From: an uncultured Gemmataceae bacterium
Lineage (GTDB): Bacteria > Planctomycetota > Planctomycetia > Gemmatales > Gemmataceae
Length of the DNA: 64,000 nt
Direction: 5' to 3'
NCBI GenBank assembly: GCA_963750165.1
Contig: CAVVPN010000003.1
Location: 2,752,001-2,816,000 of the forward strand
The notes beneath the pieces were generated by a model. It made no database searches, was not told the DNA's origin, and worked only from the letters and a program-made list of their open reading frames with translations. Shown here one piece after another: positions 3 to 63,896 of this stretch. Every line of letters starts with the position of its first letter. Position 1 is the stretch's first letter. Both the position numbers and the translations under genes were made by a program.

Positions 3-467
3 GCGGCGCCGGCGGCGCTGAAGTGGGGGGACCGGATCCAGGCGCACATCCTGCGGCGGCACCAGCCGGCGTTCCTGCGGGTGGTCAACACGAACACGGG
101 GGCCCGCATGGGCGCGGGGCCGCTGGCGCGGTTCGCTGCCAAGGTGCGGCTCAAGGTGCTGGCCAAACTCGGCGTCGCCGGCTACCAGCCCTATGAGCGG
201 TTGGGCCTCTGGCTGCGTCAGGAACTGCGGCCGCTGGTGGAGCGCTTGCTGCTGGATCCGCGCTGCCTGGACCGCGGCGTCTTCAACCCCTCGGCGGTGC
301 AGGCGGTCGTGCGCCGCCACCTGGCGGGCCAGGCGAACCACACCTACCTGTTGATGGCGATGTTGATTTTTGAACAGGGCCAGCGCGAGTTTGTTGATGA
401 CGAACGGGTCGGAGCCGGTGCGGCCGATCCCGTGGGCGTGCCGGTGGCCCTGAACGGGCCCGGCTGA
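3..467 (+). CDS. Asparagine synthase (glutamine-hydrolysing)-like amidotransferase, C-terminal part; 5' end outside window
   Basis: Frame open from window start; C-terminus 'WLRQELRPLVERLLLD..RGVFNPSAV..H..G..NHTYLL' typical of Asn_synthase-family proteins in polysaccharide loci. Confidence 0.7.
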   Translation, partial: AAPAALKWGDRIQAHILRRHQPAFLRVVNTNTGARMGAGPLARFAAKVRLKVLAKLGVAGYQPYERLGLWLRQELRPLVERLLLDPRCLDRGVFNPSAVQAVVRRHLAGQANHTYLLMAMLIFEQGQREFVDDERVGAGAADPVGVPVALNGPG

Positions 468-6800: not shown

Positions 6801-9800
6801 GGTGCCAGTCCCGGTTCCGGTGCCAGTCCCGGTGCCAGAGCCGGTGCCGCTGCCGGTGCCGGTGCCGGACCCGGTGCTGGTGGTCTGGTTGGTCACGGTA
6901 ACGGTGGTCTGGGCCGTGGCGGAGCTGCCGTTGTTCGTGACGATCAGGGTGACGGTGAAGGTGCCAGCGCTGGTGTAGCCGTGGCTCATGGTGGCGATGG
7001 TAGTGGTGGCGGAGGTGCCGTCGCCGAAGTTCCAGTTGTAGGTGAAGCCGGTCGCCGTGTTCGGGTCCGTGACAGAGACGGTGAAGGCGATGCTGGAGCC
7101 GACGACGCCCGCGTAAGGACCGCCGATGTTCGCGGTTAGCGCCACGTTGTCGGCGCTGACCGTCGTGCTGGTGCTGCTTTGCTGGCCGGCCTGGTTGGTG
7201 ACGGTCAGGGTGGCCACGTAGGTGCCGGTGGCGTCGGGGGTGAAGGTGAACTGCGCGCCGCTGCCGGTGGCAAAGACAGTGCCATTCTTGAGCACCTGCC
7301 AGGCGTCGGTATACGTCGCCCCCGACTGCGGGTTGCTGACGCTGCCTTGCAGCGTGACAGACGTGCCCTCCGGGCTGTGCCCCGATGTCGGCGCCCCCGT
7401 GATATGCGCCTGAGGGGCGGGGGCGGCGGCCACGGTGACGGTGGTCTGGGCGGTGCTGGCGGTGCCGTCCTGGTCCGTGACGGTCAGGTTGACGGTAAAG
7501 GCGCCACTGTTGACGTAGGTGTGGCTCGAGGTGGCGCCGGTGGCGGAGGTGCCGTCGCCGAAGTTCCAGCTGTAGGAGAAGCCGGCCGCCGTGTCGGCCG
7601 GGTTCGGGTCGGTGGCGCTGGCGGCGAAGGCGATACTGGTGCCCGCGACGCCCGCGTAGGGACCGCCAATGTTCGCGGTCGGGGCCACGTCGTCCGCGGT
7701 GATCGTATCGGTGCTGCTGCCGCTGTTGCCCAGCTGATTGGTGGCCGTCAGCGTGACGGCGAAGGAGCCGCGGTCGTTGGGGGTGAAGGTGAACTGCGAT
7801 CCGTTGCCGGTGGCAAAGGGGGCGCCGTTCTTGAGCACTTGCCAGACGTACGTGTAGGTGGACCCCGCGAGCGGGTTACTGACGCTGCCAGTCAACGTGA
7901 TCGGCGTGCCCGCCGGGCTGTGCCCCGACGTCGGCGCCCCCGTGATCTGCGCCTGAGGGACGGGGGCGGCGGCGGCCACGGTGACGGTGGTCTGGGCGGT
8001 GCTGGCGGTGCCGTCCTGGTCCGTGACGGTCAGGTTGACGGTGAAAGAGCCGCCGCTGACGTAGGTGTGGCTCGAGGTGGCGCCGGTGGCGGAGGTGCCG
8101 TCGCCGAATTTCCAGCTGTAGGAGAAGCCGGCCGCCGTGTCGGCCGGGTTCGAGTCGGTGGCGCTGGCGGCGAAGGCGATACTGGTGCCCGCGACGCCCG
8201 CGTAGGGACCGCCAATGTTCGCGGTCGGGGCCACGTCGTCCGCGGTGATCGTATCAGTGCTGCCGAGCGTGGCGCCAAACTGGTTGGTGGCGGTTAGCGT
8301 GACGGCGAAGGAACCGCGGTCGTCGGGGGTGAAGGTGAACTGCGATCCGATGCCGGTGGCGAAGGCGGCGCCATTCTTGAGCACCTGCCAGGCGTACGAG
8401 TAGGTGGCCCCCCCCGCGGGCGGGTTACTGATGCTGCCGGTCAACGTGATCGGCGTGCCCGCCGGGCTGTCCCCCGACATCGGCGCCCCCGTGATCTGCG
8501 CCTGAGGGGCGGGGGTCACGGTGACGGCGGTCTGGGCAGTGCTGGCGGTGCCGGCCTGGTCCGTGACGGTCAGGATGACGGTAAAGGTGCCACTGTTGAC
8601 GTAGGTGTGGCTCGGGGAGGCGCCGAAGGCGATGGCGCCGTCGCCGAAGTTCCAGCTGTAGGAGAAGCCGGCCGCCGTGTCGGCCGGGTTCGGGTCGGTG
8701 GCGCTGGCGGCGAAGGCGATGTCAGTGCCCACGACGCCTGCATAGGGACCGCCTAGGTTCGCGGTCGGGGCCACGTCATCCGCGGTGATCGTATCGATGC
8801 TGCTGAGCGTGGCGCCGAACTGGTCGGTGGCCGTCAGCGTGACGGCGAACGAGCCGCGGTCGTCGGGAGTGAAGGTGAACTGCGGGCCGCTGCCGGTGAC
8901 GAAGGCGGCGCCGTTCTGGAGCACCTGCCAGGTGTACGCATAAGTGGACCCCTGCTGCGGGTTGCTGACGCTGCCGGTCAACGTGATCGCCGTGCCTGCC
9001 GGGCTGTGCCCCGACGCCGGCGCCCCCATGATCTGCGCCTGAGGAGCGGGAGCCACGGTGACGGTGGACTGGGCGGTGCTGGCGGTGCCGGCCTGGTCCG
9101 TGACGGTCAGGATGACGGTAAAGGCGCCACTGTTGACGTAGGTGTGGCTCGGGGAGGCGCCGGTGGCGGAGGTGCCGTCGCCGAAGTTCCAGCTGTAGGA
9201 GAAGCCGGCCGCCGTGTCGGCCGGGTTCGGGTCGGCGGCGCTGGCGGCGAAGGCGATACTGGTGCCCGCGACGCCCGCGTAGGGACCGCCAATGTTCGCG
9301 GTCGGGGCCACGTCGTCCGCGGTGATCGTATCGGTGCTGCTGAGTGTGGCGCCGGTTTGGTTGGTGGCGGTCAGCGTGACGGCGAACGAGCCGCGGTCGT
9401 CGGGGGTGAAGGTGAACTGCGATCCGTTGCCGGTGGCGAAGGTGACGCCGTTCTTGAGCACTTGCCAGGCATACGTGTAGGTGGACCCCGCGAGCGGGTT
9501 ACTGACGCCGCCGGTCAACGTGATCGGCGTGCCCGCCGGGCTGTGCCCCGACATCGGTGCCCCCGTGATCTGCGCCTGAGGAGCGGGAGTCACGGTGACG
9601 GTGGTCTGGGCGGTGCCGGCGGTGCCAAGTTGGTCCGTGACGGTCAGGTTGACGGTAAAGGTGCCACCGTTGAGGTAGGTGTGGCTCGGGGAGGCGCCGG
9701 TGGCGGAGGTGCCGTCACCGAAGTTCCAGCTGTAGGAGAAGCCGGCCGCCGTGTCGGCCGGGTTCGAGTCGGTGGCGCTGGCGGCGAAGGCGATACTGGT

Positions 9801-12583
9801 GCCCGCGACGCCCGCGTAGGGACCGCCAATGTTCGCGGTCGGGGCCACGTCGTCCGCGGTGATCGTATCAGTGCTGCCGAGTGTGGCGCCGGTTTGGTTG
9901 GTGGCGGTCAGCGTGACGGCGAAGGAGCCGCGGTCGTCGGGGGTGAAGGTGAACTGCGATCCGCTGCCGCTGGCAAAGGCAGTGCCGTTCTTGAGCACCT
10001 GCCAGGCATACGCATAGGTGGACCCCGCGGGCGGGTTACTGACGCTGCCAGTCAACGTGATCGGCGTGCCCTCCGGGCTGTGCCCCGACGTCGGCGCCCC
10101 CGTAATCTGCGCCTGAGGGGCGGGGGTCACGATGACAGTGGTCTGGTCGGTGCCGGTGCCGCCGTTCTGGTCCATGACGGTCAGGATGACGGTAAAGGCG
10201 CCACTGTTGACGTAGGTGTGGCTCGGGGAGGCGCCGGTGGCGGAGGTGCCGTCACCGAAGTTCCAGCTGTAGGAGAAGCCGGCCGCCGTGTCGGCCGGAT
10301 TCGAGTCGGTGGCGCTGGCGGCGAAGGCGATACTGGTGCCCGCGACGCCCGCGTAGGGACCGCCAATGTTCACGGTCGGGGCCACGTCGTCCGCGGTGAT
10401 CGTATCGGTGCTGTCGAGCGTGGCGCCGGTTTGGTTGGTGGCCGTTAGCGTGACGGCGAACGAGCCGGCGGCGTCGGGGGTGAAGGTGAACTGCGGGCCG
10501 CTGCCGCTGACGAAGGCGGTGCCATTCTGGAGCACCTGCCAGGCGTACGTGTAGGTGGACCCCTGCTGCGGGTTGCTGACGCTGCCGGTCAACGTGATCG
10601 GCGTGCCCTCCGGGCTGTCCCCCGACATCGGCGCTCCCGTGATCTGCGCCTGAGGAGCGGGAGCCACGGTGACGGTAGTCTGGGCGATGCTGGCGGTGCC
10701 GGCCTGGTCCGTGACGGTCAGGATGACAGTAAAGGCGCCACTGTTGAGATAGGTGTGGCTCGGGGAAGCGCCGATGGCGGTGTCGCCGTCGCCGAAGTTC
10801 CAGCTGTAGGAGAAGCCGGCCGCCGTGTCGGCCGGGTTCGGGTCGGTGGCGCTGGCGGCGAAGGCGATGTCAGTGCCCACGACGCCTGCATAGGGACCGC
10901 CGAGGTTCGCGGTCGGTGCCACGTCGTCCGCGGTGATCGTCGTGCTGGTGCTGCTCTGTTGGCCCGCCTGGTTGGTGGCCGTCAGCGTGACGGCGAAGGA
11001 GCCACGGTCGTCGGGGGTGAAGGTGAACTGCGCGCCGCTGCCAGTTGCGAAGGCGGCGCTATTCTTGAGCACCTGCCAGGTGTACGTGTAGGTGGACCCC
11101 GCGAGCGGGTTACTGACGCTGCCAGTCAACGTGATCGGCGTGCCTGCCGGGCTGTGCCCCGACGCCGGCGCCCCCGTGATCTGCGCCTGCAGCGCCAGGT
11201 CGGCCACGGTGACGGTGGTCTGGGCGGTGCCGCTGTCGCCGGCCTGGTCCGTGACGGTCAGGGTGACAGGGAAGGTGCCAGCGCCGGCGTAGCCGTGGCT
11301 CATGGTGGCGGTGGTAGTGGTGGCAGTGGTGCCGTCGCCGAAGTTCCAGTTGTAGGAGAAGCCGGCCGCCGTCTCGACCGGGCTCGGGTCCGTGGCGCGG
11401 GCGTTGAAGGCGATGCTGGAGCCGACGACGCCCGCATAGGGACCGCCGAGGTTCGCGGTCGGCGCCACGTCGTCCGCGGTGATCGTCGTGCTGGTGCTGC
11501 CCAGCTGGCCCGCCTGGTCGGCGGCGGTCAGGGTGATGGCGAAGGAGCCGATGCCGTCGGGGGTGAAGGTGAACTGCGGGCCGCTGCCGCTGGCGAAGGC
11601 GGCGCCGTTCTTGAGCACCTGCCAGGCATACGTGTAGGTGGGCCCCTGCTGCGGGCTGTTGACGCTGCCGGTCAACGTGATCGGCGTGGCCGCCGGGCTG
11701 TGCCCCGACGCCGGCGCCCCGTGATCTGCGCCTGCAGCGTCGAGTCGGTCACGGTGACGGTGGTCGGATTCGTGCCGACGGTGGGCCAGTCCCCGAAGAA
11801 TTCCGGGGAGGTCAGGATCAGGACCGCCACTTTCTCCAGGGAAGAATCGACGGTGGGGATCGTGCCGACGAACTGCTGGACGTTGAGTGGGTACTGGGAG
11901 TTGTCCGTGTCATGCGCCGTGGTGTAAGCCAGGCTGTGGAACCCAATGATGTCCCCGGGATCCTGGTCCTGCAGGCCGCGGACAAAGCCGGTGAGACCGG
12001 GCGCGTCCGCCGTGCGGTTCAGCAGGCTGACGTAGTCATTCCCGACCACCAGGGTCTCATTTTCCTTGGTAGTCAGGATGTCCAGGGCCACGGTGGCGTA
12101 ACTCTTTGGGGTTTGCAACTGCGCCGTCCAGCCCGATAGCTCCGCGTAACTCGGGGCGCGGCCGAGCAGGTTCTGGTAGAGCGACTGCACGAATTTGGTG
12201 GGGCCCGGGTGGTCGGCCAGGTATTCCGGCGAGGTCAGCAAGGCGGTCTGAACCTGAACTTCACTCAGGCCGCCGTTGGTGAAGCGGTTGACCCAGTGCT
12301 GCCGCTCCGCGGGGGTTTCGGTGCGGTCCAGGAAGCTCTGGTAGTACGAGTCTACTTGCAGGCCGCGGTGCTCCGGCGACAGCCAGATGCTAGCCACCAG
12401 TTGTGTGGCTGAGGAGGTTTGATCCAGCTGCACGCCGGCGGTGACCTCGGCCGCGGTCGGCGAGCGGTGCAGCACCTGCAGGTACAGGCCGTTCACGTAA
12501 CTGGCTGCGTCCGGCACCAGGCGCGCTTCCAACGTCTCAACGCCAAGGTTAATCTGCTGTTTCTTCGTCGAGATGCGACCCAT
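3801..12583 (-). CDS. Giant secreted PKD-repeat protein (~2,927 aa after repairing one frameshift): planctomycete N-terminal motif, DUF4214-like domain, 11 two-domain PKD/Ig units, C-terminal putative catalytic region
   Basis: ATG 12583 with GAGG upstream; 'LGVETLEARLVP'; 'YVNGLYLQVLHRSP' DUF4214-like; repeated WNFGDG. ORFs 11672-12751 and 3801-11675 join at CCCC 11717-11720, where sister repeats have CCCCC. Confidence 0.85.
5660..11735 (-). repeat. Intragenic tandem repeat, ~537-bp (179-aa) unit x11, interrupted by a Gly-Thr linker at ~6750-6880
   Basis: Near-identical units (equivalent positions 9292/9829/10366, spacing 537). Confidence 0.9.
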
Positions 12584-37401: not shown

Positions 37402-39624
37402 ATGAAGCGTTTCGGCCTGCTCAGCCTCGGGCTACTGACCCTGTTCCTGTGCTGCCCAACGACAGCCCAGACCGGCGGCGATCCAGTCGCCGATCTCGTC
37501 CAGAGCCTCGACGACGCCAGGGATAAGCCAGCCCAACTCAAGGCGCTCAAGGCGCTCGGCGCGTACGGCAACGCCGCCCGGACAGCCGTGCCGCTGGTGC
37601 GGCTGTTCCTGCGCGAAAAGGACGACGGCCTGGCCAACCAGGCGGCCCAGACCCTGGCGCAAATCGGCCGGCCCGCCGTGCCGCCGCTGGTCCAGTTGCT
37701 GACCGACAAGAACGCCAAACTGCGCCACCGTGCCGCCTGGGCGCTGAGCCTGTTGGGACCGGAAGGCAAGGACGCCGTGGCCGCCCTGGAGCAAGCGCTG
37801 ACGGACGACAACTCCGAGGTGCGCAGCCTGGCGGCCGCGGCGCTCGGCGAGATCGGGCCGGCGGCCCAGCCGGCGTGTGACCGCCTGGTGCGAACGCTGG
37901 CGGACCCCAACCCGAAGGTGCGGACGCAGGGCGCCCAGGCGCTGCGGCGGCTCGGCTCCGGGGCCGTGGCGGCACTCGGCAAGGCGTTGTCCGACGAACA
38001 GCCGGCCGTCCGGCAAGGTGCCGCCCAGGTTCTGGCGCTGCTCGGCTCCGAGGCGAAGACGGCCGTGCCGCAGTTGACCGAGGCGGTCAAGGATACCGAC
38101 TCGGGCGTGCGTCTGGCCGCAGTGGGAGGCGCTGGGGGCGGTCGGTCCTGAGGCGAAAACCGCCGTGCCCACCCTGATTGAGTCCCTTCGGGTCAAACAC
38201 TTGCAAACGCAGTTGCAGGCGTACTCCGCTCTGTTGCTGATCGTCAAGGACGACCCCGAGGCGCTGGCGAACACCCTCCGTGAGGTGTCCCTGCAGACGC
38301 GCTGGGCGACACCTTATCTGCTGCCGCAGTTCGGCCCCCGGGCCAAGGACGCCGTCCAGCCGCTCATCAAACTGCTGGAGGATCCCGACCTTAACGTCCG
38401 CGTGACCTCGGCAATCGCCCTCGGCAACCTGGGTTCGCCGACGGCCGCAGAAGCCGTGCCGGCTTTGATCAAATGCCTGAATGACCCGGAGCCTCCTGTC
38501 CGTATGAGCGCCGCGGCTGCCCTGGCCGCGATGGACCCGCCAAACCTCCAGCAAGCCGGCATGTCCCCCCGGCGGAGTGAGGCTTTCACGGCCCTGGAAA
38601 AAGCCGCCTTTCAGGTCGAACAGGTGTACATCGCCTCCCAGAATCGGCTGGCCCAGTTGACCGGCGGCAGGCCGTTGTTGAACCCCGCAGCCCTCTCCGA
38701 TCCGGTGCTCCAGGGTCAATACAACTACATCGTCAACACGTTCATCGTGGCCCTGAATTTTTACCCCTACAACAAGGGCGAATGTAGTAAACTGATCCCC
38801 ATCCAGCAGGCCGCCAGGAGCGTGCTGATGAAGCTCGGTCCGGAAGCGACGCCAGCGCTGGTTCGCGGGCTGAATTACGTGGGTCGTTACAACATTGGTT
38901 TTACCTGACCGCTTCACACCATGCAGAATTCTCTGCTGAGCGCCGTGCGCGCTTCCAGTTCTCCGGTCCTGTACAAATACGTTCTGCAAAACCTTGGCCA
39001 GGGCGTTCCCTCGCAGTCCACCGTCGGCTCGATCATTCACCAGGCCCGACAATTCCTCGCCGCGGACCTGTACAGGGGCCATGCGCCCATCCCGAAGCAG
39101 CACCACCCGGCGGCCATGGCCCGGCTGATTCAGCAACAGTCCCTGGCGCAACTCCGCCAGCAACAGCAGCAACTCCGGCAAGCGGCACAACTGCTGGCCC
39201 AGCAGCGGCAGCAACTGCTGGCCCAGCAACTGGAAAAATGGTGGCGCGACCAGAACCAGCGCAAGAGGCGCTGGAACGCTGCGTGCATGAACTGTGGCTG
39301 CTCGACACCGACGAGTTGCGGTTGCGCCTGGTGGACGAGCGACCGATGGTCCGCTGGGTGACGGTTCAGGTCATCGCCCTGCGACGGCTGCCGCTGGAGG
39401 TCGATCTGATCGATCTGTTGTCGGACAAGTCCCCCGAGGTGAGCCAGGCGGCGCGGCAGGGGCTCGTGCGCCTGAGCCGTGGCTGCGACTTCGGGCCGTC
39501 GCCCCAGGCCACGGCGGCGCAGCGCACCCAGGCGCTTGCCGCGTGGCGGCGCTGGCTGGCGCGGCAGGATCCACCGCCGGCACCGTCTTCTCCGGGCGAG
39601 CCGAAAACGATCGTCATGCCGTGA
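37402..39624 (+). CDS. Secreted HEAT-repeat protein (~740 aa reconstructed) with in-frame TGA at 38906; candidate selenoprotein; indels near 38124 (+1) and 39236 (-1)
   Basis: Four ORF pieces form one collinear protein; C-terminal half homologous to 21642-22616 on both sides of the TGA, which aligns with Cys96 of that paralog. Confidence 0.75.
38910..38942 (+). promoter_or_regulatory. Candidate SECIS-like hairpin immediately 3' of the in-frame UGA
   Basis: By eye: lower stem CGCU(U)CA/UGAGCG, upper stem GCAGA/UCUGC, apical loop ~19 nt after UGA; loop not clearly canonical. Confidence 0.4.
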
Positions 39625-52226: not shown

Positions 52227-55200
52227 GTGCTACATTCTCTGAATCGCGTGTGGTCCAAGCGGAAGAGCATGTTCCGGCGTCAAGGCGACGCAGTCACCCA
52301 GGCGCGCAAGCCGTTCCGCCCTGCCCTGGAAGCGCTCGAAGGCCGCGTCGTTCCCGCCTTCGCCATCCGGGCGACCGAGTTCGACAGCCTCAAGAACGTG
52401 GTCGCTTCGAGCACGCAAACCAGCCCGAGCGGCCCTGGCAGCGCCTTCAACGCCATCTTCACTCTGCCGGATTTCAGCATCACCATCGTCGGCAACAACT
52501 CGAACATCGGCTCCACCTACGCCGCCCACAGCACCACGATCAACATGCTGTACACCGGCCCGACCGGGGCCAACTCGGACAGCATTCTCATTGAGGTCCT
52601 GGGCGACAGCTACGTCACCCCCAGCGCTGGCCCGGCCCAAATCACCAGCAACGCCTCCCCCAGCACCTCCGGACTGCAGGCGAGCACTGTCACCATGACC
52701 AGCGGCGTGCTCAACGGCGACGTCGCGCTGTCGGGCACGCCAGGCACCACGCTGAACGGCCAGTTGGGGCAGACGATGGGGGCGGGCTCGATCGGTTCGG
52801 CGTCGAGCGTCCTGTCGCCCAACCCAACCGTGTCCGGTTCGGTCTTCACGCTCGCCAACCCGTTCACGTTCTACCAGACCTACACGTTCGGCGGGTTTAA
52901 CACCACCGGCCAGGCTGGTTCCATGTCGGCGGGCTCGGAGGTCGATGCCGTCCCCAACGCGAACAACCCGCACATCGCCATCGTCAAGTTGACCAACGGT
53001 ACCAACAATGATGACCCGCCCACCCCGGGTGTGCCGGACGGCCCCATCGTGATGGTGGGTAGCACGGTCACCTGGACCTACAACGTCACCAACCCGGGCA
53101 ACGAACCGATCGCCAACGTGAACGTCACCGATAACATCGCCGGGGTCAACCCACTGCCGGTGCTCTCGGGCAGCTTCAACGTCGGCGACACCAACGACAA
53201 CGGCCTGCTCGACCCCGGCGAGACCTGGGTGTACACCGCCACCGGCATCGCCACACTCGGCCAGTACAGCAACGTCGGCACCGTCACCGGCACCAGCACC
53301 ATCACCAACACCCCCGTCGCTTCCGATAACCCCGACCACTACTTCGGCGTTCCGGTCACCCCGACCATCACGACCCAGCAGACGCCGCTGACGGGCCCCG
53401 TCGGCACCTCGACCAACGACACGGCGATCGTCACCGGGTACTACCCGACCGGGACGGTCACGTTCAACCTGTACGACAACCCGAACGGCACCGGCACCTC
53501 GTTGTTCACCGACACCGAGCCGTTGGTCATCACCCCCGAGGAGCCACTGGTCGGGGTGGCGACCTCGACCGATTTTACGATCACTGCCCCCGGCACCTAC
53601 TACTGGGTGGCCACCTACAACGGCGACAACCTGAACAACAACCCGGTCACGAGCACGACGGACGGCGAGCCGGTGGTCGTCGCCACCCCGGCCATCAACA
53701 TCGTCAAGCTGACCAACGGCACCAACAACGATAGCCCGCCCGTCGCCGGCACGCCCGACGGCCCCATCGTGCCGGTCGGCAGCACCGTCACCTGGACCTA
53801 CAACGTCACCAACCCCGGCACGGAGCCGATCGCCAACGTCGCCGTCAGCGACAACATCGCGGGCGTCAACCCGACCCCGGTGCTCTCGGGCGGCTTCAAC
53901 GTCGGCGACGCCAACGACAACGGTCTGCTCGACCCCGGCGAGACCTGGGAGTTCACCGCCAGCGGCACGGCCACCGCCGGCCAGTACAGCAACATCGGCA
54001 CCGTCACCGGCACCAGCACCATCACCAACACGCCGGTCAGCGCCACCAATCCGGACCACTACTACGGCTACACGACGAATATCAACATCGTCAAGTTGAC
54101 CAACGGCACCAACAACGACAACCCGCCCGTCGCGGGCGTGCCCGACGGCCCAACGGTGCCCGTGGGCAGCACCGTCACCTGGACCTACAACGTCACCACC
54201 ACGGGCAACGTGCCACTCTCGAGCGTCGCCGTTAGCGACAACATCGCGGGCGTCAACCCGACCCCGGTGCTCTCGGGCGGCTTCAACGTCGGCGACACCA
54301 ACCAGGACGGCCTGCTCGAGGCCGGTGAGACCTGGGAGTTCACCGCCAGCGGCACGGCCATCGCCGGCCAGTACAGCAACATCGGCACCGCCACCGGCAC
54401 CCCGAGCACCCCGAGCGGCACCCCCATCCCCGGCGCCCCGCCGCAGACCTCCACCAACCCGGACCACTACTACGGCACGCTGTCGCTGGGCGACTTCGTC
54501 TGGAACGACGTGAACGCCAACGGCATCCAGGACAGCAGCGACCTGACCAGCAACGGCATCAACGGCGTGCTCGTCGATCTCGAGAACAGCGGCGGCACCG
54601 TCATCGCCACCACCACCACGGGCAATAACCCGGTGGGCGGCGCCCCCGGCTACTACCAGTTCAGCGGTCTGCTGCAGGGCACCTACACCGTCGTCATCGA
54701 CAGCAGCAACTTCGCCAGCGGCGGCGCCCTGGCCAGCTACTCGGCCACGCCGAGCATGGTTGCCGGCAGCACCACCGCCAACGACAGCAACGGCAGCCCG
54801 GCTTCTGTCACGCTGACCACGGCCAACGACGAGACCATCGACTTCGGCTACTTCAAGCCGGGCATCAACATCGTCAAGTTGACCAACGGCACCAACAACG
54901 ACAACCCGCCCGTGGCGGGCACCCCTGACGGCCCGACGGTGCCGGTGGGCTCGACGGTGACCTGGACCTACAACGTCACCAACCCCACGGGCGTGGCGCT
55001 GAGCAGCGTCAGCGTCAGCGACAACATCGCGGGCGTCAACCCGACCCCCGTCCTCTCGGGCGGCTTCAACGTCGGCGACACCAACCACGACGGCCTGCTG
55101 GAAATGGGCGAGACCTGGGTGTTCACCGCCACAGGCACCGCCATCGCCGGCCAGTACAGCAACATCGGCACCGCCACGGGCACGCCGGTGACGCCGACCG

Positions 55201-58200
55201 GCGGCACCATCCCGGGCGCCACGCCGGTCAGCGCCACCAACCCGGACCACTACTACGGCACGCTGTCGGTCGGCGACTTCGTCTGGAACGACGTGAACGC
55301 CAACGGCATCCAGGACAGCAGCGACCTGACCAGCAACGGCATCAACGGCGTGCTCGTCGATCTGAAGAACAGCAGCGGCACCGTCATCGCCACCACCACC
55401 ACCGGCAACAACCCGGTCGGCGGCGCCCCTGGTTACTACCAGTTCAGCGGCCTGCTGCAGGGCAGCTACACCGTCGTCATCGACAGCAGCAACTTCGCCA
55501 GCGGCGGCGCCCTGGCGGGCTACACGGCCACGCCGAGCATGGTTGCCGGCAGCACCCCCGCCAACGACAGCAACGGCAGCCCGGCCGCCGTCACGCTGAC
55601 CACGGCCAACGACGAGACCATCGACTTCGGCTACTTCAAGCCGGGCATCAACATCGTCAAGCTGACCAACGGCACCAACAACGACAGCCCGCCGGTGGCC
55701 GGCACGCCCGACGGCCCGACGGTGCCGGTGGGCTCGACGGTGACCTGGACTTACAACGTCACCAACCCCACGGGCGTGGCGCTGAGCAGCGTCAGCGTCA
55801 GCGACAACATCGCGGGCGTCAACCCGACCCCGGTGCTCTCGGGCGGCTTCAACGTCGGCGACACCAACCACGACGGCCTGCTGGAAATGGGCGAGACCTG
55901 GGTGTTCACCGCGAGCGGCACCGCCATCGCCGGCCAGTACAGCAACATCGGCACCGCCACCGGCACGCCGGTGACGCCGACCGGCGGCACCATCCCGGGC
56001 GCCACGCCGGTCAGCGCCACCAACCCGGACCACTACTACGGCACGCTGTCGGTCGGCGACTTCGTCTGGAACGACGTGAACGCCAACGGCATCCAGGACA
56101 GCAGCGACCTGACCGGCAACGGCATCAACGGCGTGCTGGTCGATCTCGAGAACAGCGGCGGCACCGTTATCGCCACCACCACCACGGGCAACAACCCGGT
56201 CGGCGGCGCCCCTGGCTACTACCAGTTCAGCGGCCTGCTCCAGGGCACCTACACCGTCGTCATCGACAGCAGCAACTTCAACACCGGCGGCGCCCTCTTC
56301 GGCTACACGCCCACGCCGAGCATGGCCGCCGGCAGCACCCCGGCCAACGACAGCAACGGCAGTCCGGCACCCGTCACGCTGACCACGGCCAACGACGAGA
56401 CCATCGACTTCGGCTACATCAGGCCGACCCCTATCACCATCACCACCACGCCTGGCGGTCCGGTGGCCATCGGCACGCCCAGCCTGGTCGTGACCAAGAC
56501 GGCCAACGTGACCGCCGCCTTGCCGTTCCAGCCCGTGACCTACACCTACACGGTCACCAACACGGGGAACGCTCCGGCGACCAACGTGTCCCTGGTCGAT
56601 GACGACGGCTTGCCGAGCATGCCTGCGTATTCCTTCACCCCGGCGCCGGTCACGACGACCTACAACGGCCAGACCTACAACGTCGGCGACGCCAACCACG
56701 ACGGGCTGCTCAGCCCCGGCGAGACGTGGCAGTTCACCGCCACCGTCATCCCGCCCGTGACCGAGTCGCAGGTCATCAACGGCACCGATGTGTCCGTCGG
56801 CACCCTGATCGTCCAGCACCCCACCAGCGGGCCGTACGCCGGCGACTACGAGGTCACCTTCCTGCAGAGCCTGGGCCTGGTGGACAACACCTACGGCACC
56901 AACGCCTCCTCCGGCTGGGGCACGCACGGCCACACCTTCAGCGACCTGACCGGCAGCGACGGCGCCGACTTCCAGTTCATCGACAGCAGGGGCAACACCG
57001 TCCTGCAGTTCGAGGCGGACTACGTCAGCCAGGGCAGTTCCATGACCCTGCCCAACGGCACCACGGTCAACTACCCGTCCGGCTACGGCACCCTCGGCCT
57101 GGGCGGCGACGGCAGCCTGAGCGTCGGCAACGGCAGTAACATCCTGGCCATCAACACCACCATTACCCAGGACCTGAACCAGTCGTCGGCCTACTACGGT
57201 TTCACCACCAACTCGCCGACCCCGGGCTCCAGCCTGGACGCCAACTGGAACAACGTGGACGGCTACACGGTGGTCGTCAGCCCCGCCACGTTCGGGGCCA
57301 ACGGCTTCGGTTCGGTGAGCATCCCGTACGTCCACGACTCGCCGTCCAAGCTGTCCAGCACCATCCGGTTCACCCCGGTCGCCGAGCCCTCGACGGTCAC
57401 CAACACCGTCACGGTCACCGCCACCGCCGCCGGCACGACCAATCAGGTCACCGGCAGTGCCACGACGAACGTGCAAATCGTGCCCGGCGGCCCCACCATG
57501 CAGAACACCGCCTCGATCGGCCTGCCGACGACGTTCGCGCCGCCGGCCACGCCCTTGACCGACTCGGCGACGCTGTCCGGCGGGAACAGCCCGACCGGCA
57601 CGATCACGTTCTACCTGTTCGCACCGGGGGTCACACCCAACGCCAACAACAGCAACAACGTCTACAGCACCACGGTCGCCGTCAGCCACGGCAACGGGAC
57701 GTACTCCACGCCGGCGACGGGCTACGCGCCGCAGACGACCGGCACGTATCAGTGGGTGGCCGTTTACAGCGGTGACGGTAGCAACGCCAGTGTCACCAGC
57801 CCCTTCGGCTCCGAGCCCGAAGCCGTCAGCCCGCCGATCTTCATCGCCACCACGCCCGGCGGCACGGTGGACCTCAACTCGCCCAGCCTGGTCATCACCA
57901 AGACGGCCAACGCGACCGCCGTGTTGCCGTTCCAGCCCGTGACCTACACCTACACGGTCAGCAACAACGGCAGCGCCGCCGCGACCAATGTGTCCGTGGT
58001 GGACGACAACGGCACGCCGGGCTCCACCGGCGATGATTTCAGTCCGGCGCCGGTCACGACGACCTACAACGGCCAGACCTACAACGTCGGCGACGCCAAC
58101 CACGACGGCCTGCTCAGCCCCGGCGAGACGTGGCAGTTCACCGCCACCGTCATCCCGCCCGTGACCGAGTCGCAGGTCATCAACGGCACCGACGTCGATG

Positions 58201-61200
58201 TCGGCACGCTCAGCGTGCAGCAGCTGCCGTCCGGCGACTACAAGGTCACGTTCCTGCAGAGCCTGGGCCTGGTGGACAACACCTACGGCACCAACGCCTC
58301 CTCCGGCTGGGGCACGCAGGGCCACAAGTTCAGCGACCTGACCGGCAGCGACGGCGCCGACTTCCAGTTCACCGACGGCAGGGGCAACACCGTCCTGCAG
58401 TTCGAGGCGGACTACGTCAGCCAGTCCAGCTCCTTCCCCTCTGACTACGGCACGCTCGGTCTGGGCGGTGACGGCAGCCTGAGCGTCGGCAACAGCGCCT
58501 GGATCAGGTCCATCGACACCACCATCACCGACGACCTGAACCAGTCGCCGGCCTACTACGGTTTCACCACCAACTCGCCCACGCCCGGCACCACTCTGGA
58601 CGCCAGCTGGAACAACGTGGACGGCTACACGGTGGTCATCAGTTCTGCCGCGTTCGGGGCCAACGGCTTCGGTTCGGTGAGCATCCCGTACGTCCACGAC
58701 TCGCCGTCCAAGCTGTCCGGCACCATCCGGTTCACCCCGGTCGCCGAGCCTTCCACCGTGACGAACAACGTGACGGTCACGGCCACCGGCGTCGGCTCCA
58801 CCACCCAGGTCACGGCCAACACCGGCGTCTCGGTGCAGATCGTGCCGGGCGGCCCGGCCAACCCCACCCCGGTCACTGCGTCCTCGTCGTCCGCGGCGAT
58901 GCCCACGCAGTTGACCGACTCGGCGACGATCACCGGTGGCAACAACCCGACCGGCACGGTCACCTTCTACCTGTTCGCGCCCGGGGTCACGCCCAACGCG
59001 ACCTTCAGCAACAACGTCTTCACCACCGCGGTCACGGTGAACGGCGCCGGAACCTATCCCACGCCGAGCGGCTACACGCCGATGCAGACGGGCACCTACC
59101 AGTGGGTGGCGGTCTACAGCGGCGACAGCAACAATCCGGGCGTCACCAGCCCGTTCGGCAGCGAGCCTGAGACGGTCGGGCCGCCGGTCGCCATCAGCAC
59201 GACGCCCGGCGGCACGGTGGCCCTGGTCAACGGCGTGGCGAGCGGCGCGTTGACCGACTCGGCGACGATCTCGGGCGGCTACAGACCGGGCGGTTCGGTC
59301 ACGTTCTACCTGTACGCGCCGGGCGTCACCCCCGACGCCCTCAACGACAACTACGTCTACACCGTCACGGTGCCGGTCACCGGCGACGGGACCTACACCA
59401 CGCCGGGCGGCTTCACGCCGACGATGGCATTGTCGGGCCTGGGCACCTACGAGTGGGTGGCCGTCTACAGCGGCGACCTCAACAACGCCGGGGTTTCGTC
59501 GCCCTTCAGCGACGAGCCGGAGATCGTCAACGGCGGCACCCCGAACGTGGTCGTGACCAAGACGGCCGACCGGTCCAGCATCGCGGCGGGAATGACGGCC
59601 GGATACACCGTCACGATCACCAGCACCGGCACCGGCACCGCCACCGGGGTGACGCTGAGCGACCCGCTGCCGGCTGGTTCTGGCGGCGACGTCAACTGGA
59701 TGATCGACGGCACGGTGGGCTCCCCGGCCGATTTCACCATCACCGGATCGCCGGGGCACCAGAGCCTGACGTTGTCGTCGTACTTCCTGACCACCCTGGG
59801 AGACAGCCTGGCCCCCGGCGCGAGCATCTCCGTCCACATCACCAGCCCGACGAACACGGGAGACGCCAACGGCGGCGCCCTGGCGAGCAGTTTCAACACA
59901 GCCGGCACTGCCGCCTCCGGTTTCGTCACCCTGGGCACGGCGAGCAATTACAGCGTGCTCGGGCTCATTAACACGGCCATCACCAACAGCGCCGTCACCA
60001 TCACGGGCAACGAGGGCGTGTCGCAGGGCGGCTCGCTCTCGAACATGGCTTCCTCGTCCATCACCGGTAACGTTTACGAGTATGCCAGCGGGCAATACTC
60101 GGGCCCGGGCATCCTGGGCGGGTCGGTCATCACCAACGCCAGTTTGCTCGCCCAGAACGATACGGACGCCCTCAATGCCTCGACCGCCGCTGCGGGGCTG
60201 AGCGCCACGCAGACCTTCGGGAACATCACCGCCGCGACCACCGTTAATGGCAACGGCGGCCTCAACGTGATTGATATCAACGGCAACATCAACCTCAACA
60301 ATGCCTCGCTGACCCTGAGCGGTTCCGCCTCGGACGTGTTCATCGTCAACGTGACCGGGAACGCCACCTTCGGGGGAACCGGTGGTTTGATGCTGGGCAG
60401 CGGCGTGACGGTCAACCACGTGCTGTACAACTTTACGGGCACCGTCGGCGGCCCTGCCGGCACCATCACTTCCCACGTCGGCAACGTCTTCTACGGGACG
60501 CTGCTGGCTCCCCATGAAAGTTTCAACCTCGACGGCAGCTTCGTCGGCGAGATCATCGGCGGCGGCTCGGCGGGCATCCAACTGCTTTCCAACGCCACGG
60601 TCAACGCCAACGTCATGAGCCTGCCGAACGGCCTGAGCAACACGGCCACGGTCACGGCCAGCGGCGTCGCGTCGCAGCAAGCTTCGGCCACGATCACGAT
60701 CGCGCAGCCGGGCACCATCAGCGGCACCAAGTTCCTTGACACGACCGGCAAAGGCTTCGGCGGCACCAACTCCCCGCTCGGCGGCGTGCCGATCAACCTC
60801 TACAACGACACCAACAACAACGGCGTCCTTGACGGTGGCGACTCCCTGGTCGCCACCACCACCACCTCGACGGTCGCGGGGCAAGTCGGCACCTACTCCT
60901 TCACCGGGCTGGCGCCGGGCACTTACTTCGTGCAGGAGGTGGTCCCCTCCGGCTACGTCCAGACCGGCGGCGGCCCGAACGGCTCGGCCGGCGCCACCTA
61001 CTACACCGTCACCGTCCAGTCCGGTCAGGCCTACGCCGGCAACAACTTCGACGACTACCAGACCCCGACCTGCGCCCCCACCAACGTCAGCTACTACGTC
61101 GTCAACAACGGCAGCACGACGTCGTACAGCAACCTGAGCGGCAACACCAACCAGGGTAACTCGGTGACGGCGGTGTTCACCGTCACGATGACCGAGACGC

Positions 61201-63896
61201 TCAGCCTGGTGAGCTACATCGCCCCCGGCCCGAGCTTCGACGCCACGACCGCCTACCAGCAGCAGATCTTCGACGTGGCCAGCGGCACCTTCACGCCCGG
61301 CACCTACATGCTCACGGTGCTGATCCCGAACAGTTACTACCAGATCGATTTCGTCTGCGGCCAGGCGATCAGCACGCTGGGGCCGCAGAACTACGGCCCC
61401 GATAGCGGCAACATCTTCTACACGCCGCAGGGCCGCCTGCTCAGCGCCGACAACGACGGCACGACGGCGTTCGCGCCCCACGCGGTCGCCCCAGGCGACT
61501 TCGCCAAGAACAACTTCTGGGGCACCGCGATCGGCCAGAACGTGATCAAGGCCCTCAACGGCGGCTCGACCGCAACCTACCTGGCCTACTGGCTGGCCAC
61601 CACGTTCCCGAACCTGTACGGCCCCGGCGCCGGCAGCAGCCACTCGCTGGTCAACAGCAACGGCACCTACTTCACCAACGCCCAGGTGGCGACCGCCTAC
61701 GCCCACTTCGCCGGCAACGACCAGCAGGTGCTGTCGTCGGCCCTGTCCGTCTACGCCACCAGCATCAACCTCGCCGGCACCAACGTCCACAGCCTCGACA
61801 CCCACTTCAACACCTCAATGACCGGGTCCGCCATGGACACGGTCAGCGTCGGCCCCAACGGCGCCGCGTTCGGCCTGGCGAACAACACCACCGCGACGGT
61901 GATGCAGTTGCTGGTGGACCTCAACGCCAACACCGCCGCCGGGGCGGCCGTCTCCGCGGGAGCCGGCCCGGTGTTCACCGGCATCAACAACACCGGCAAC
62001 GTCACCAACGGGGCGCCGACCACGGCGGGTGGGGTGTCCTACACGCCGGCCCAGGTGCGGGCCGCCTACGGCGTCAGCAACCTCGCCCTGGACGGCACCG
62101 GTCAGACGATCGCGATTGTCGATGGCTACGACAACCCGGCCATCTTCACGGCCCTGGACACCTTCGACGCCCAGTTCGGCGTGACGACCACCGGACCGTC
62201 GCTGTACGACCAGTACGGGGCGGCCGCGTCGTTCCTGACGGTGGTGAACCAGTCCGGCCAGACGGGCGCCCTGCCCGCCACCGACCCGACCGGCGGCTGG
62301 GAGCTGGAAGAGGAACTCGACGTGGAATGGATCCACGCCCTGGCCCCGGGCGCCCAGATCGTCCTGGTCGAGGCCAACAGCCAGTCCCTGTCCGATCTGA
62401 TGACCAGCGTGCAAACGGCCGCCGGCCTGCCCGGCGTCTCCGTGGTGTCGATGAGCTGGGGCTTCGCCGAGGGCGTGTCCGTCCTCGCCCAGGACGAGGC
62501 GACCTACGACGCCGACCTGACCACACCCGCCGGCCACCAGGGCGTCACCTTCGTGGCCAGCACCGGCGACTACGGCACCGCCGACCCCGAGTATCCCGCC
62601 TTCTCGCCCAACGTCGTGGCCGTCGGCGGCACCTCGCTGCTGCTCAACGGCGACGGCTCCTACAACAGCGAAACGGGTTGGGGTTACAACTCCAGCAGCC
62701 TGGGGGCGTTCATCGGCAGCGGCGGCGGTGTCAGCCAGTACGAGGCCGAGCCGGCCTACCAACAGAGCGTCCAGTCCACGGGCTTCCGCACCACCCCGGA
62801 CGTGTCCTTCGTGGCCGACCCGGGCACCGGCGCCTGGGTCGCCGACCCGTTCAACAAGTCCGCCGACGACCCCTGGCAGACCGTGGGCGGCACCAGCCTG
62901 TCGGCGCCGAGCTGGGCGGGCCTGTTCGCCCTGGCCAACCAGGGGCGGACGGACGCCGGCCTGGCGACCCTCGGCACCACCACGCCGAACCAGGCACAGC
63001 AGGCGCTGTACACGCTGCCCCTGGGCGATTTCAACGATGTCACCACCGGCTTCAACGGCTACAGCGCCGGCCCCGGCTACGACCTGGTGACGGGCCTGGG
63101 CACCCCGGTGGCCAGTCAACTGGTGCCCGACCTGGCCGCGTTCACCACGGCCGGCCCGTCGCCGCGCACCGTGACCGTGACCGCGGGCGTCGGCAGCGGC
63201 AGCCTGGGCAACTACAGCAGCATGAACGCCCTGCACAACGTTGTCAACGTCGAGGTGGCGGGGGCGACGGGGTTGACCTTGCGGGACAGCCAGAGCCCGG
63301 CCGCGGCGGCGTCAACGAGCCCGGCGCTCGACCTGAGCGTGCTGCCCAAGTCGGTCGCGGCCGCCCCGGTGAGTGCGCTTACGTTCGCGCCGACCCAGGC
63401 GGTCAACCCGCTGGCGGTCACCGCGGCGAACGGATTCGTGACGCTGCCGACCGCGGTCTCCGGTGCCAACGGGACCGTCGTCCAGGTGGTCAGCCAGGCT
63501 CCGGTCAGCCTGATCTCGGCGGGTCTGGTCCAGGCCCCGCAGAGTGTCGCCAGCAGGTCCACGGATCTGTTCGCCGAACTGGCCCGCGGTCGCGCCATCA
63601 GTGACGCCTCGCTGTGGCAGCACGACGACCTGTTCGTGCCGGCGGCGAACGCCCGGGAGCCGCTGGCGAACTTCGGGACCGAGGCGCCGGCCGAGGAGCA
63701 GGTGCTGGACAGCATCTTCGGCAGCCTGGCCGCGGACGACGGCGACGAGGCCCTGGTGCTCGCCCCCGGCATCCGTGAGGTGGACGCGGCCTGTGCCGTG
63801 GGCCTCGCCTGGCTGGCCCTGTCTGCGTCGGCCGAAGACGAGCGGAACAGCCGCAAGTCCTCCGGCTTGCCTCAGCGGCGTTCCCCGAAGGTGTGA
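52227..63896 (+). CDS. 3,889-aa secreted repetitive adhesin-like protein: DUF11-like and SdrD-B-like repeats, ice-binding-like beta-solenoid, C-terminal S53 (sedolisin) peptidase
   Basis: 'FRPALEALEGRVVP'; repeated NIVKLTNG..VTWTYNVTN..GETW and GDFVWNDVNANGIQD..GYYQFSGL; S53 motifs EEELDVEW, ASTGD, VGGTSLSAP, GYDLVTGLGTP. Confidence 0.92.
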   Translation: MLHSLNRVWSKRKSMFRRQGDAVTQARKPFRPALEALEGRVVPAFAIRATEFDSLKNVVASSTQTSPSGPGSAFNAIFTLPDFSITIVGNNSNIGSTYAAHSTTINMLYTGPTGANSDSILIEVLGDSYVTPSAGPAQITSNASPSTSGLQASTVTMTSGVLNGDVALSGTPGTTLNGQLGQTMGAGSIGSASSVLSPNPTVSGSVFTLANPFTFYQTYTFGGFNTTGQAGSMSAGSEVDAVPNANNPHIAIVKLTNGTNNDDPPTPGVPDGPIVMVGSTVTWTYNVTNPGNEPIANVNVTDNIAGVNPLPVLSGSFNVGDTNDNGLLDPGETWVYTATGIATLGQYSNVGTVTGTSTITNTPVASDNPDHYFGVPVTPTITTQQTPLTGPVGTSTNDTAIVTGYYPTGTVTFNLYDNPNGTGTSLFTDTEPLVITPEEPLVGVATSTDFTITAPGTYYWVATYNGDNLNNNPVTSTTDGEPVVVATPAINIVKLTNGTNNDSPPVAGTPDGPIVPVGSTVTWTYNVTNPGTEPIANVAVSDNIAGVNPTPVLSGGFNVGDANDNGLLDPGETWEFTASGTATAGQYSNIGTVTGTSTITNTPVSATNPDHYYGYTTNINIVKLTNGTNNDNPPVAGVPDGPTVPVGSTVTWTYNVTTTGNVPLSSVAVSDNIAGVNPTPVLSGGFNVGDTNQDGLLEAGETWEFTASGTAIAGQYSNIGTATGTPSTPSGTPIPGAPPQTSTNPDHYYGTLSLGDFVWNDVNANGIQDSSDLTSNGINGVLVDLENSGGTVIATTTTGNNPVGGAPGYYQFSGLLQGTYTVVIDSSNFASGGALASYSATPSMVAGSTTANDSNGSPASVTLTTANDETIDFGYFKPGINIVKLTNGTNNDNPPVAGTPDGPTVPVGSTVTWTYNVTNPTGVALSSVSVSDNIAGVNPTPVLSGGFNVGDTNHDGLLEMGETWVFTATGTAIAGQYSNIGTATGTPVTPTGGTIPGATPVSATNPDHYYGTLSVGDFVWNDVNANGIQDSSDLTSNGINGVLVDLKNSSGTVIATTTTGNNPVGGAPGYYQFSGLLQGSYTVVIDSSNFASGGALAGYTATPSMVAGSTPANDSNGSPAAVTLTTANDETIDFGYFKPGINIVKLTNGTNNDSPPVAGTPDGPTVPVGSTVTWTYNVTNPTGVALSSVSVSDNIAGVNPTPVLSGGFNVGDTNHDGLLEMGETWVFTASGTAIAGQYSNIGTATGTPVTPTGGTIPGATPVSATNPDHYYGTLSVGDFVWNDVNANGIQDSSDLTGNGINGVLVDLENSGGTVIATTTTGNNPVGGAPGYYQFSGLLQGTYTVVIDSSNFNTGGALFGYTPTPSMAAGSTPANDSNGSPAPVTLTTANDETIDFGYIRPTPITITTTPGGPVAIGTPSLVVTKTANVTAALPFQPVTYTYTVTNTGNAPATNVSLVDDDGLPSMPAYSFTPAPVTTTYNGQTYNVGDANHDGLLSPGETWQFTATVIPPVTESQVINGTDVSVGTLIVQHPTSGPYAGDYEVTFLQSLGLVDNTYGTNASSGWGTHGHTFSDLTGSDGADFQFIDSRGNTVLQFEADYVSQGSSMTLPNGTTVNYPSGYGTLGLGGDGSLSVGNGSNILAINTTITQDLNQSSAYYGFTTNSPTPGSSLDANWNNVDGYTVVVSPATFGANGFGSVSIPYVHDSPSKLSSTIRFTPVAEPSTVTNTVTVTATAAGTTNQVTGSATTNVQIVPGGPTMQNTASIGLPTTFAPPATPLTDSATLSGGNSPTGTITFYLFAPGVTPNANNSNNVYSTTVAVSHGNGTYSTPATGYAPQTTGTYQWVAVYSGDGSNASVTSPFGSEPEAVSPPIFIATTPGGTVDLNSPSLVITKTANATAVLPFQPVTYTYTVSNNGSAAATNVSVVDDNGTPGSTGDDFSPAPVTTTYNGQTYNVGDANHDGLLSPGETWQFTATVIPPVTESQVINGTDVDVGTLSVQQLPSGDYKVTFLQSLGLVDNTYGTNASSGWGTQGHKFSDLTGSDGADFQFTDGRGNTVLQFEADYVSQSSSFPSDYGTLGLGGDGSLSVGNSAWIRSIDTTITDDLNQSPAYYGFTTNSPTPGTTLDASWNNVDGYTVVISSAAFGANGFGSVSIPYVHDSPSKLSGTIRFTPVAEPSTVTNNVTVTATGVGSTTQVTANTGVSVQIVPGGPANPTPVTASSSSAAMPTQLTDSATITGGNNPTGTVTFYLFAPGVTPNATFSNNVFTTAVTVNGAGTYPTPSGYTPMQTGTYQWVAVYSGDSNNPGVTSPFGSEPETVGPPVAISTTPGGTVALVNGVASGALTDSATISGGYRPGGSVTFYLYAPGVTPDALNDNYVYTVTVPVTGDGTYTTPGGFTPTMALSGLGTYEWVAVYSGDLNNAGVSSPFSDEPEIVNGGTPNVVVTKTADRSSIAAGMTAGYTVTITSTGTGTATGVTLSDPLPAGSGGDVNWMIDGTVGSPADFTITGSPGHQSLTLSSYFLTTLGDSLAPGASISVHITSPTNTGDANGGALASSFNTAGTAASGFVTLGTASNYSVLGLINTAITNSAVTITGNEGVSQGGSLSNMASSSITGNVYEYASGQYSGPGILGGSVITNASLLAQNDTDALNASTAAAGLSATQTFGNITAATTVNGNGGLNVIDINGNINLNNASLTLSGSASDVFIVNVTGNATFGGTGGLMLGSGVTVNHVLYNFTGTVGGPAGTITSHVGNVFYGTLLAPHESFNLDGSFVGEIIGGGSAGIQLLSNATVNANVMSLPNGLSNTATVTASGVASQQASATITIAQPGTISGTKFLDTTGKGFGGTNSPLGGVPINLYNDTNNNGVLDGGDSLVATTTTSTVAGQVGTYSFTGLAPGTYFVQEVVPSGYVQTGGGPNGSAGATYYTVTVQSGQAYAGNNFDDYQTPTCAPTNVSYYVVNNGSTTSYSNLSGNTNQGNSVTAVFTVTMTETLSLVSYIAPGPSFDATTAYQQQIFDVASGTFTPGTYMLTVLIPNSYYQIDFVCGQAISTLGPQNYGPDSGNIFYTPQGRLLSADNDGTTAFAPHAVAPGDFAKNNFWGTAIGQNVIKALNGGSTATYLAYWLATTFPNLYGPGAGSSHSLVNSNGTYFTNAQVATAYAHFAGNDQQVLSSALSVYATSINLAGTNVHSLDTHFNTSMTGSAMDTVSVGPNGAAFGLANNTTATVMQLLVDLNANTAAGAAVSAGAGPVFTGINNTGNVTNGAPTTAGGVSYTPAQVRAAYGVSNLALDGTGQTIAIVDGYDNPAIFTALDTFDAQFGVTTTGPSLYDQYGAAASFLTVVNQSGQTGALPATDPTGGWELEEELDVEWIHALAPGAQIVLVEANSQSLSDLMTSVQTAAGLPGVSVVSMSWGFAEGVSVLAQDEATYDADLTTPAGHQGVTFVASTGDYGTADPEYPAFSPNVVAVGGTSLLLNGDGSYNSETGWGYNSSSLGAFIGSGGGVSQYEAEPAYQQSVQSTGFRTTPDVSFVADPGTGAWVADPFNKSADDPWQTVGGTSLSAPSWAGLFALANQGRTDAGLATLGTTTPNQAQQALYTLPLGDFNDVTTGFNGYSAGPGYDLVTGLGTPVASQLVPDLAAFTTAGPSPRTVTVTAGVGSGSLGNYSSMNALHNVVNVEVAGATGLTLRDSQSPAAAASTSPALDLSVLPKSVAAAPVSALTFAPTQAVNPLAVTAANGFVTLPTAVSGANGTVVQVVSQAPVSLISAGLVQAPQSVASRSTDLFAELARGRAISDASLWQHDDLFVPAANAREPLANFGTEAPAEEQVLDSIFGSLAADDGDEALVLAPGIREVDAACAVGLAWLALSASAEDERNSRKSSGLPQRRSPKV
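54080..56420 (+). repeat. Intragenic tandem repeat, 783-bp unit (DUF11-like + SdrD-B-like) x3
   Basis: Near-identical units starting ~54080/54863/55646. Confidence 0.88.

Follow-up and report, generated by a model that had tools for sequence, protein, structure and literature searches.

A predicted selenocysteine in a family of HEAT-repeat-bearing helical proteins of Gemmataceae

We analyzed a 64,000-nt stretch of the genome of an uncultured Gemmataceae bacterium (G000:C3:2752001-2816000; hereafter the window) and found that the gene at 37402-39624 on its plus strand carries an in-frame TGA, at 38906-38908, which with a probability of roughly 95% encodes selenocysteine (Sec). The reading draws on a UGA that is conserved among orthologs, on the selenocysteine machinery of the genome and on a hairpin downstream of the UGA. 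The explanation as a whole, that is an exported helical Sec protein with a two-hairpin insertion signal and a Se-S site, is in our view highly probable, and this Gemmataceae family of helical-repeat selenoproteins has very probably not been described before.

Gene model and distribution of the UGA

Reading of the ORFs confirmed that, as the preliminary description had claimed, the ORF at 38165-38908 is joined in frame through the TGA to the ORF at 38921-39361. The further claim that 37402-39624 forms a single read-through frame had to be given up. When compared by tblastn with the protein of an intact ortholog (L031, 732 residues with Sec at 492), the window copy fell into three collinear pieces with 60, 58 and 68% identity. 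The first frame change lies at 38116-38128, between tblastn HSPs and at or near a GGG run (38124-38126), while the second was detected against the L031 protein near 39250-39262. Counting through the first break, Sec falls at about residue 502 of a protein of about 740, as had been proposed. We suggest that the locus is one gene whose product would be an all-helical protein of ~740 residues made up of a signal peptide, a HEAT array, a six-helix Sec domain and a C-terminal HEAT pair. The start and the signal-peptide-like N-terminus (37402-37470) were recognized by eye from a basic start, a hydrophobic stretch and small residues, similar in intact orthologs, and by this signal peptide the protein is predicted to be exported. 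An N-terminal array of HEAT_2/PBS-type repeats follows (37471-38540; 58-60% identity to the L031 protein), for which Pfam HEAT_2 was found in P0001 and in the ortholog L021. The gene ends with the C-terminal HEAT pair, the GxDFGP..W..W tail and the stop (39262-39624; 68% identity to the L031 protein), and the C-terminal match to a paralog that had been noted earlier was reproduced through this tail (E 6e-12).

In G000 the Sec gene is flanked by a histidine-phosphatase gene and an AP_endonuc_2 gene, and the neighbourhoods of 13 TGA loci had nothing in common beyond 2-3 loci of one genus. Elsewhere in the window we noted a 3191-codon minus-strand ORF without a Pfam match (52230-61805), overlapped by a 3889-codon plus-strand frame, and a 2624-aa minus-strand protein with about 20 PKD domains (3801-11675).

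A first search for relatives in 41 genomes had identified a second genus with GFT-TGA-P in a 784-codon frame. In the full search 60 of 252 Gemmataceae genomes matched, with 76 matches listed and a subset of the loci inspected; 34 non-TGA homologs with loci served as controls. Among the inspected loci, 15 distinct ones in 13 of the 252 genomes and 6 genera had TGA at the same column, although these counts are not independent since the loci are related and 8 of the 13 genomes belong to one genus. Median core identity among the TGA loci was 33%. All 15 TGA copies fell in one column with the motif G[FD][CTVI]UP. The frame was conserved downstream, a point that the preliminary description had proposed to check in orthologs, and 10 of the 15 genome copies were intact, each a single frame of 783-946 codons whose beginning resembles a signal peptide. 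One copy flagged as having a TGA (G139:C5) proved to be a Cys form on inspection and was moved to the control set.

A metagenome search with a DNA pattern allowing TGN gave 20 matches; 11 were family genes, all with TGA (8 new and 3 repeats), and the other nine were chance matches. Together with the 15 genome loci this makes 23 distinct Sec loci. One metagenome TGA locus (L136) had neither hairpin nor GU and stopped 15 codons later; it is either a decayed or a mis-assembled member. A species-wide pattern scan returned 24 loci, half of them (12) chance matches and the other 12 family genes that had been found before, and the species-wide family matches were titled Gemmataceae or uncultured Planctomycetota/Planctomycetia. 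In the sister family, 6 of the 15 genomes had homologs, all of them short non-TGA forms, and 400 genomes from elsewhere in the phylum gave no match at E<=1e-7. In our searches the selenoprotein family was limited to Gemmataceae among the genomes covered. Single loci stood out in other respects: two Sec-type copies occur in tandem at L060 (G167:C58), two long Cys-type copies in tandem at L064 (G172:C3), and a Glu-type fragment (GFSEP) lies in an AT-richer, broken context at L162 (G060:C115).

Hairpins downstream of the UGA and the selenocysteine machinery

With the U of the UGA as position 0, all 15 TGA genome copies have a GU at +39/40, which 1 of the 34 non-TGA homologs shares; around it, 14 of the 15 form a stem of 5 bp or more, as opposed to none of the 34. 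In the independent set of eight new metagenome loci, seven had the GU and five had 5 bp or more of stem. RNAalifold recovered the same 6-bp hairpin unaided. In the SECIS alignment 90% of the cells were paired, relative to 23-47% in slid controls, and the relatedness of the loci inflates the SECIS shuffle test. Two-sided changes were found in five of the six SECIS base pairs, and the window copy and L031 swap two of these pairs relative to the other loci. In the window the SECIS-like hairpin occupies 38938-38954, with a 6-bp stem, the loop CGUGC (GU at 38945-38946) and -8.0 kcal/mol; its loop begins 35 nt after the UGA. It fits, at the far edge, the bSECIS consensus as given in the accessible text of PMC13188914 (loop of 3-9 nt with G among its first two positions, stem of 4-16 bp, 16-37 nt spacing and MFE <= -7.5), and its loop departs from GGUNN.

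We assessed selection on the hairpins by synonymous resampling, in which the protein was fixed and the codons were redrawn. In the Sec loci p<=0.05 was reached by the SECIS in 16/23, by the spacer in 13/23 and by a downstream control in 0/23; the corresponding values for the Cys forms were 3/33, 0/33 and 1/33. The SECIS of the window alone was not significant (whole-region folding z -0.1 to -1.1; resampling p 0.15), the signal having come from the alignment and not from single-sequence folding of the post-UGA region. Only 148 of the 232,848 TGA triplets of G000, the window TGA included, passed a GU-plus-stem test that was defined after the alignment had been seen, and model R1 identified a single locus in G000, the Sec gene (E 5e-5; next 0.98). 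De novo TGA scans of G000 returned mostly noise, from which a Prx-like and an ArsM-like site were taken further.

The interval between the UGA and the SECIS holds a further hairpin, at 38923-38936 in the window (-6.1 kcal/mol; p 0.015 by synonymous resampling). The register of this spacer hairpin is variable among the loci, with a median of -6.7 kcal/mol as compared to -1.1 kcal/mol in controls. The loop G of three ordinary Sec genes of G000 (fdhA, Prx-like and ArsM-like) lies at about +21 to +25, whereas the family loop lies ~15 nt further from the UGA; the CUG-GUU-CAG core recurs in the Prx-like gene, where it is 15 nt closer to the UGA. According to the accessible part of PMC4605307, a model of SelB puts the distance between the loop and the A site at ~57 A, or ~13 nt, and allows for some flexibility of the hinge. 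We propose that the UGA would be read as selenocysteine by SelB and tRNA-Sec, and that the variable spacer hairpin would shorten the path by looping out ~15 surplus nt, which would bring the SECIS loop within the usual reach of SelB. Such an uptake of the added length between UGA and SECIS by the spacer hairpin appears somewhat likely from these distances.

The machinery that the preliminary description had proposed to look for was found in G000, which has selA, selB, selD and a tRNA-Sec (71.6 bits). The searches of the other TGA genomes covered selA and selB and detected selA in 12/12 and selB in 12/12 (11 over cut-off). Since 43 of the 47 genomes in which all homologs are non-TGA have selA as well, co-occurrence with the machinery is necessary and not discriminating. 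The three further Sec genes of G000 are of known-looking type. The fdhA-type gene is a molybdopterin oxidoreductase with IUHS and a GGUCU-loop hairpin at +21 (L156; G000:C3:1169930, minus). An exported protein with WUPFC and a GU-loop hairpin at +24 (G000:C12:1195919, minus), which we take to be Prx/AhpC-like from its motif, is likely a selenoprotein of known kind. A methyltransferase with DUIAG and a 10-bp hairpin (G000:C1:471060, plus) is presumably ArsM-like by the same kind of assignment. We also noted 16 tRNA genes arrayed in 1.6 kb at G000:C10:88560-90125.

The Sec domain, its relatives and alternative readings

AlphaFold2 modelled the C-terminal half as all-helical (pLDDT 84.8) and, within it, a six-helix core at 38690-39085 (pLDDT 90.5, pTM 0.83). 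In the motif GFT-U-P, Sec (modelled as Cys) belongs to the first turn of helix 4, and the Pro that follows it is invariant. The alpha-solenoid context claimed earlier was correct insofar as HEAT repeats flank the site; Sec itself lies in a separate six-helix domain and not in a canonical HEAT repeat. In agreement with the preliminary description and unlike thioredoxin-fold selenoproteins (UxxC, CxxU), neither AlphaFold2 model has strands and no Sec form has Cys at +3 or -3. PF13646 repeats scored over cut-off in the N-terminal array and the C-terminal pair; HEAT repeats were all that Pfam and NCBIfam recognized, and the Sec domain matched no Pfam or NCBIfam family. With NCBIfam 20.0, no model, the lyase/hydroxylase models included, was over cut-off for three proteins, and there were no families for the window core and one weak match (E 0.076) among 15 cores. 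Structure searches returned only generic helical repeats, the best being exportin-4 (Z 10.4, rmsd 3.3, 116 aligned), and no Foldseek match at E<=0.001. The best PDB sequence match had an E of 0.16, and Atlas matches were all under 0.9 and hypothetical or HEAT proteins only.

All 23 Sec forms had a second Cys within 46 residues of Sec, as compared to 11 of 28 Glu-type and 19 of 103 Cys-type proteins. At the positions -1, +37..40 or -42..-40, which were chosen after the data had been seen, a Cys occurred in 22/23 Sec forms, 1/28 Glu-type and 0/103 Cys-type proteins. This candidate partner was at -1 in 16 of the 23 and at +38/39 in four of the other seven. The window copy has Thr-Sec in place of the Cys-Sec (G[FD]CUP) of most orthologs and, like L031, a Cys at -41 (38783-38785), which is common to L031 and L135. 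To judge from helix order, the loops at -41 and +38 would lie to either side of the Sec loop on a common face, so that the -41 Cys may lie close to Sec.

The preliminary description had also aligned the TGA with a Cys of a short paralog (L027; 21642-22616, plus), and we found this to be Cys96 (S-C-P; codon 21927-21929), ungapped downstream, in a weak alignment (32-33% identity, E 5e-4 to 4e-6 in the genome). L027 lacks the SECIS-like hairpin. The use made of this UGA/Cys pairing stood in part: Cys homologs do occur at the column, but the subfamily of the Cys paralog is a distant one whose loop is shorter by two residues, and it is Glu that the closest non-Sec relatives carry. We examined the Sec column in the best 150 of 406 library proteins and counted C 106, E 22, D 3, Q 2, A 1 and S 1; 12 others stopped exactly before the column and 3 rows were unusable. 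HYT87396.1, a 491-aa 'HEAT repeat domain-containing protein [Gemmataceae bacterium]', is one of those that stop. In this set all 106 Cys proteins were in the shorter-loop subfamily while same-loop relatives had E, D, Q, A or S. None of the Cys forms in the best 150 of 406 had the GF loop of the Sec forms, so the classic Sec/Cys criterion applies only in comparison with the more distant subfamily. G000 itself has a third, long paralog with GFT-E-P at the column (L029; G000:C12:1150686-1151006, minus), in several broken frames and without a SECIS-like hairpin. Glu-type proteins have the GF loop in common with the Sec forms and group together in a clade (SH-aLRT 96), to which L029 and at least 27 library proteins belong, in a quick tree of 82 rows and 87 columns that kept 30 random and 1 chosen of 107 Cys rows and left out 2 mis-aligned rows and the loop columns. 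The same quick tree placed one Asp protein among the Sec forms (SH-aLRT 96) and gave no supported branching order of Sec and Glu; FastTree nested Glu in Sec with a weak backbone.

We propose that the selenolate at the helix start would pair with a Cys, adjacent in 16/23 forms or in a neighbouring loop, and that this would make a reversible Se-S redox site on an extracytoplasmic protein-binding scaffold, which may reduce or sense an oxidised partner. The presence of such a redox site on a partner-binding scaffold has, in our estimate, close to an even chance. Sec could instead be inserted at a site that is a soft-metal or organometal ligand with Se/S donors, the Cys+His and Glu/Asp forms binding other metals. 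The column takes U, C, E and D, all of them ligands, and a His is found at +37..41 in 84/103 Cys-type proteins, where Sec forms often have Cys. Moreover, the accessible text of bioRxiv 2022.07.06.499078 connects CU motifs, in HgcA and in the SAO system, with the handling of heavy metals. On the other hand, no metal-resistance or transport neighbours were conserved at 13 TGA loci. The Glu-type proteins have lost Sec and the partner Cys, mostly lack the His as well (present in 3/28) and also tolerate Q, A and S, which fits a loss of activity. We regard metal binding, a close competitor of the redox reading, as possible and somewhat doubtful; a structural or some other role takes up the remaining probability.

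A second alternative accepts the family as selenoproteins and takes the window copy for a decaying pseudogene with real frameshifts. Two breaks in 2.2 kb exceed the background of G000, where by a rough count 2 frame changes occurred in 8,698 aligned residues of 31 loci, and the Glu paralog on C12 is broken too. However, frameshifted copies were found in 4/4 cases in assemblies of 5-12 contigs and in 1/11 in assemblies of 110-1780 contigs, and this concentration in few-contig assemblies points to assembly indels. The first break falls at or beside a run of G, comparison with L031 shows mostly third-position changes both before and after the TGA, and the SECIS is retained with compensatory changes. 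One DNA run was listed (share 0.05), and its contigs span neither the TGA nor either of the frameshifts. A pseudogene is rather unlikely, and the frameshifts of the window copy are probably assembly errors.

It is very improbable that the UGA is a true stop, whether it separates two genes or ends a HEAT-only product, with translation starting again at an ATG further downstream. Many copies do have an ATG within 2-5 codons (38921 in the window), and both halves are present in databases (P0008, P0148). Against this, the TGA lies inside the compact six-helix domain of the AlphaFold2 model, the Cys and Glu homologs are continuous, the frame, the stop type (always TGA) and the U-P context are invariant, and the SECIS-like hairpin is kept only in TGA forms. 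A truncated by-product at low selenium is nevertheless likely. Decoding of the UGA as Trp, Gly or Cys through a changed code or a suppressor is even less credible: a second UCA tRNA called as tRNA-SeC by ARAGORN (G000:C11:1435205-1435300) is probably false, being absent from the 11 RF01852 matches and without a cloverleaf fold, TGA terminates ordinary genes here (for example at 39622-39624), and no Trp occurs at the column in the best 150 of 406 library proteins.

Relation to known selenoproteins

E. coli fdhF is an example of a bacterial selenoprotein gene with an intragenic SECIS. The Gemmataceae genes resemble bacterial genes of this kind, as described in the accessible text of PMC13188914, in the in-frame UGA, the 4-16 bp hairpin with a small loop of G then U, the 16-37 nt spacing and the SelABCD machinery. 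They differ in the position of the loop, whose start 35 nt from the UGA is at the outer end of this spacing, and in the second selected hairpin that lies between. We also compared the family with the CU-motif selenoproteins SaoL (NF040728), SaoB, SaoC, HgcA (NF040863), MbdU (NF045648) and KCU-star (NF033934). Points of likeness are the Cys-Sec dipeptide, which 16 of the 23 members carry, the truncation of database proteins at this Cys and the export of some members. On the other hand, the Gemmataceae proteins had no sequence match to the models of that set, have an all-helical HEAT-like domain and no conserved operon, and lack the adjacent Cys in 7/23 members, the window copy with its Thr-Sec included. 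The array and the C-terminal pair match HEAT_2 and PBS-lyase HEAT-like proteins (PF13646, PF03130), unlike the Sec domain, which has no Pfam match.

The suggestion that the family was an unfamiliar one agreed with these comparisons, as no match was found among the family models or catalogues compared. A HEAT-type family is absent from the 119-family table of 2026, and the word HEAT from the accessible text, of PMC13188914; the families of Haft and Tolstoy 2025 were compared through that table only. No HEAT family was found in the accessible parts of BSepDB (PMC13326102), of deep-Sep with its nine new families (PMC12013277) or of bioRxiv 2022.07.06.499078, and our literature searches found no paper on a Gemmataceae HEAT-like Sec family or on Sec/Glu exchange.

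As a tentative reading of the whole, the family may be a lineage-restricted one that joins Sec on an all-helical HEAT-like scaffold lacking any known redox fold to a two-hairpin signal, in which the variable spacer hairpin would return a SECIS displaced by five codons to the range of SelB, and to a site alternating between Sec+Cys, Cys+His and Glu/Asp; selenium might then be a tunable anionic ligand, replaced by carboxylate rather than by Cys. The finding brings to the selenoprotein catalogue, in which thioredoxin and metalloenzyme folds predominate, a family outside both, and implies that 'HEAT repeat protein' database entries of Gemmataceae are cut at the Sec codon. The spacer-hairpin layout offers a direct test of the reach of SelB, and could account for some of the bacterial selenoprotein genes in which a canonical SECIS is said to be missing. 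Finally, the Sec/Glu sister pair questions Cys as the stand-in for Sec and exposes a blind spot of Cys-homology screens.
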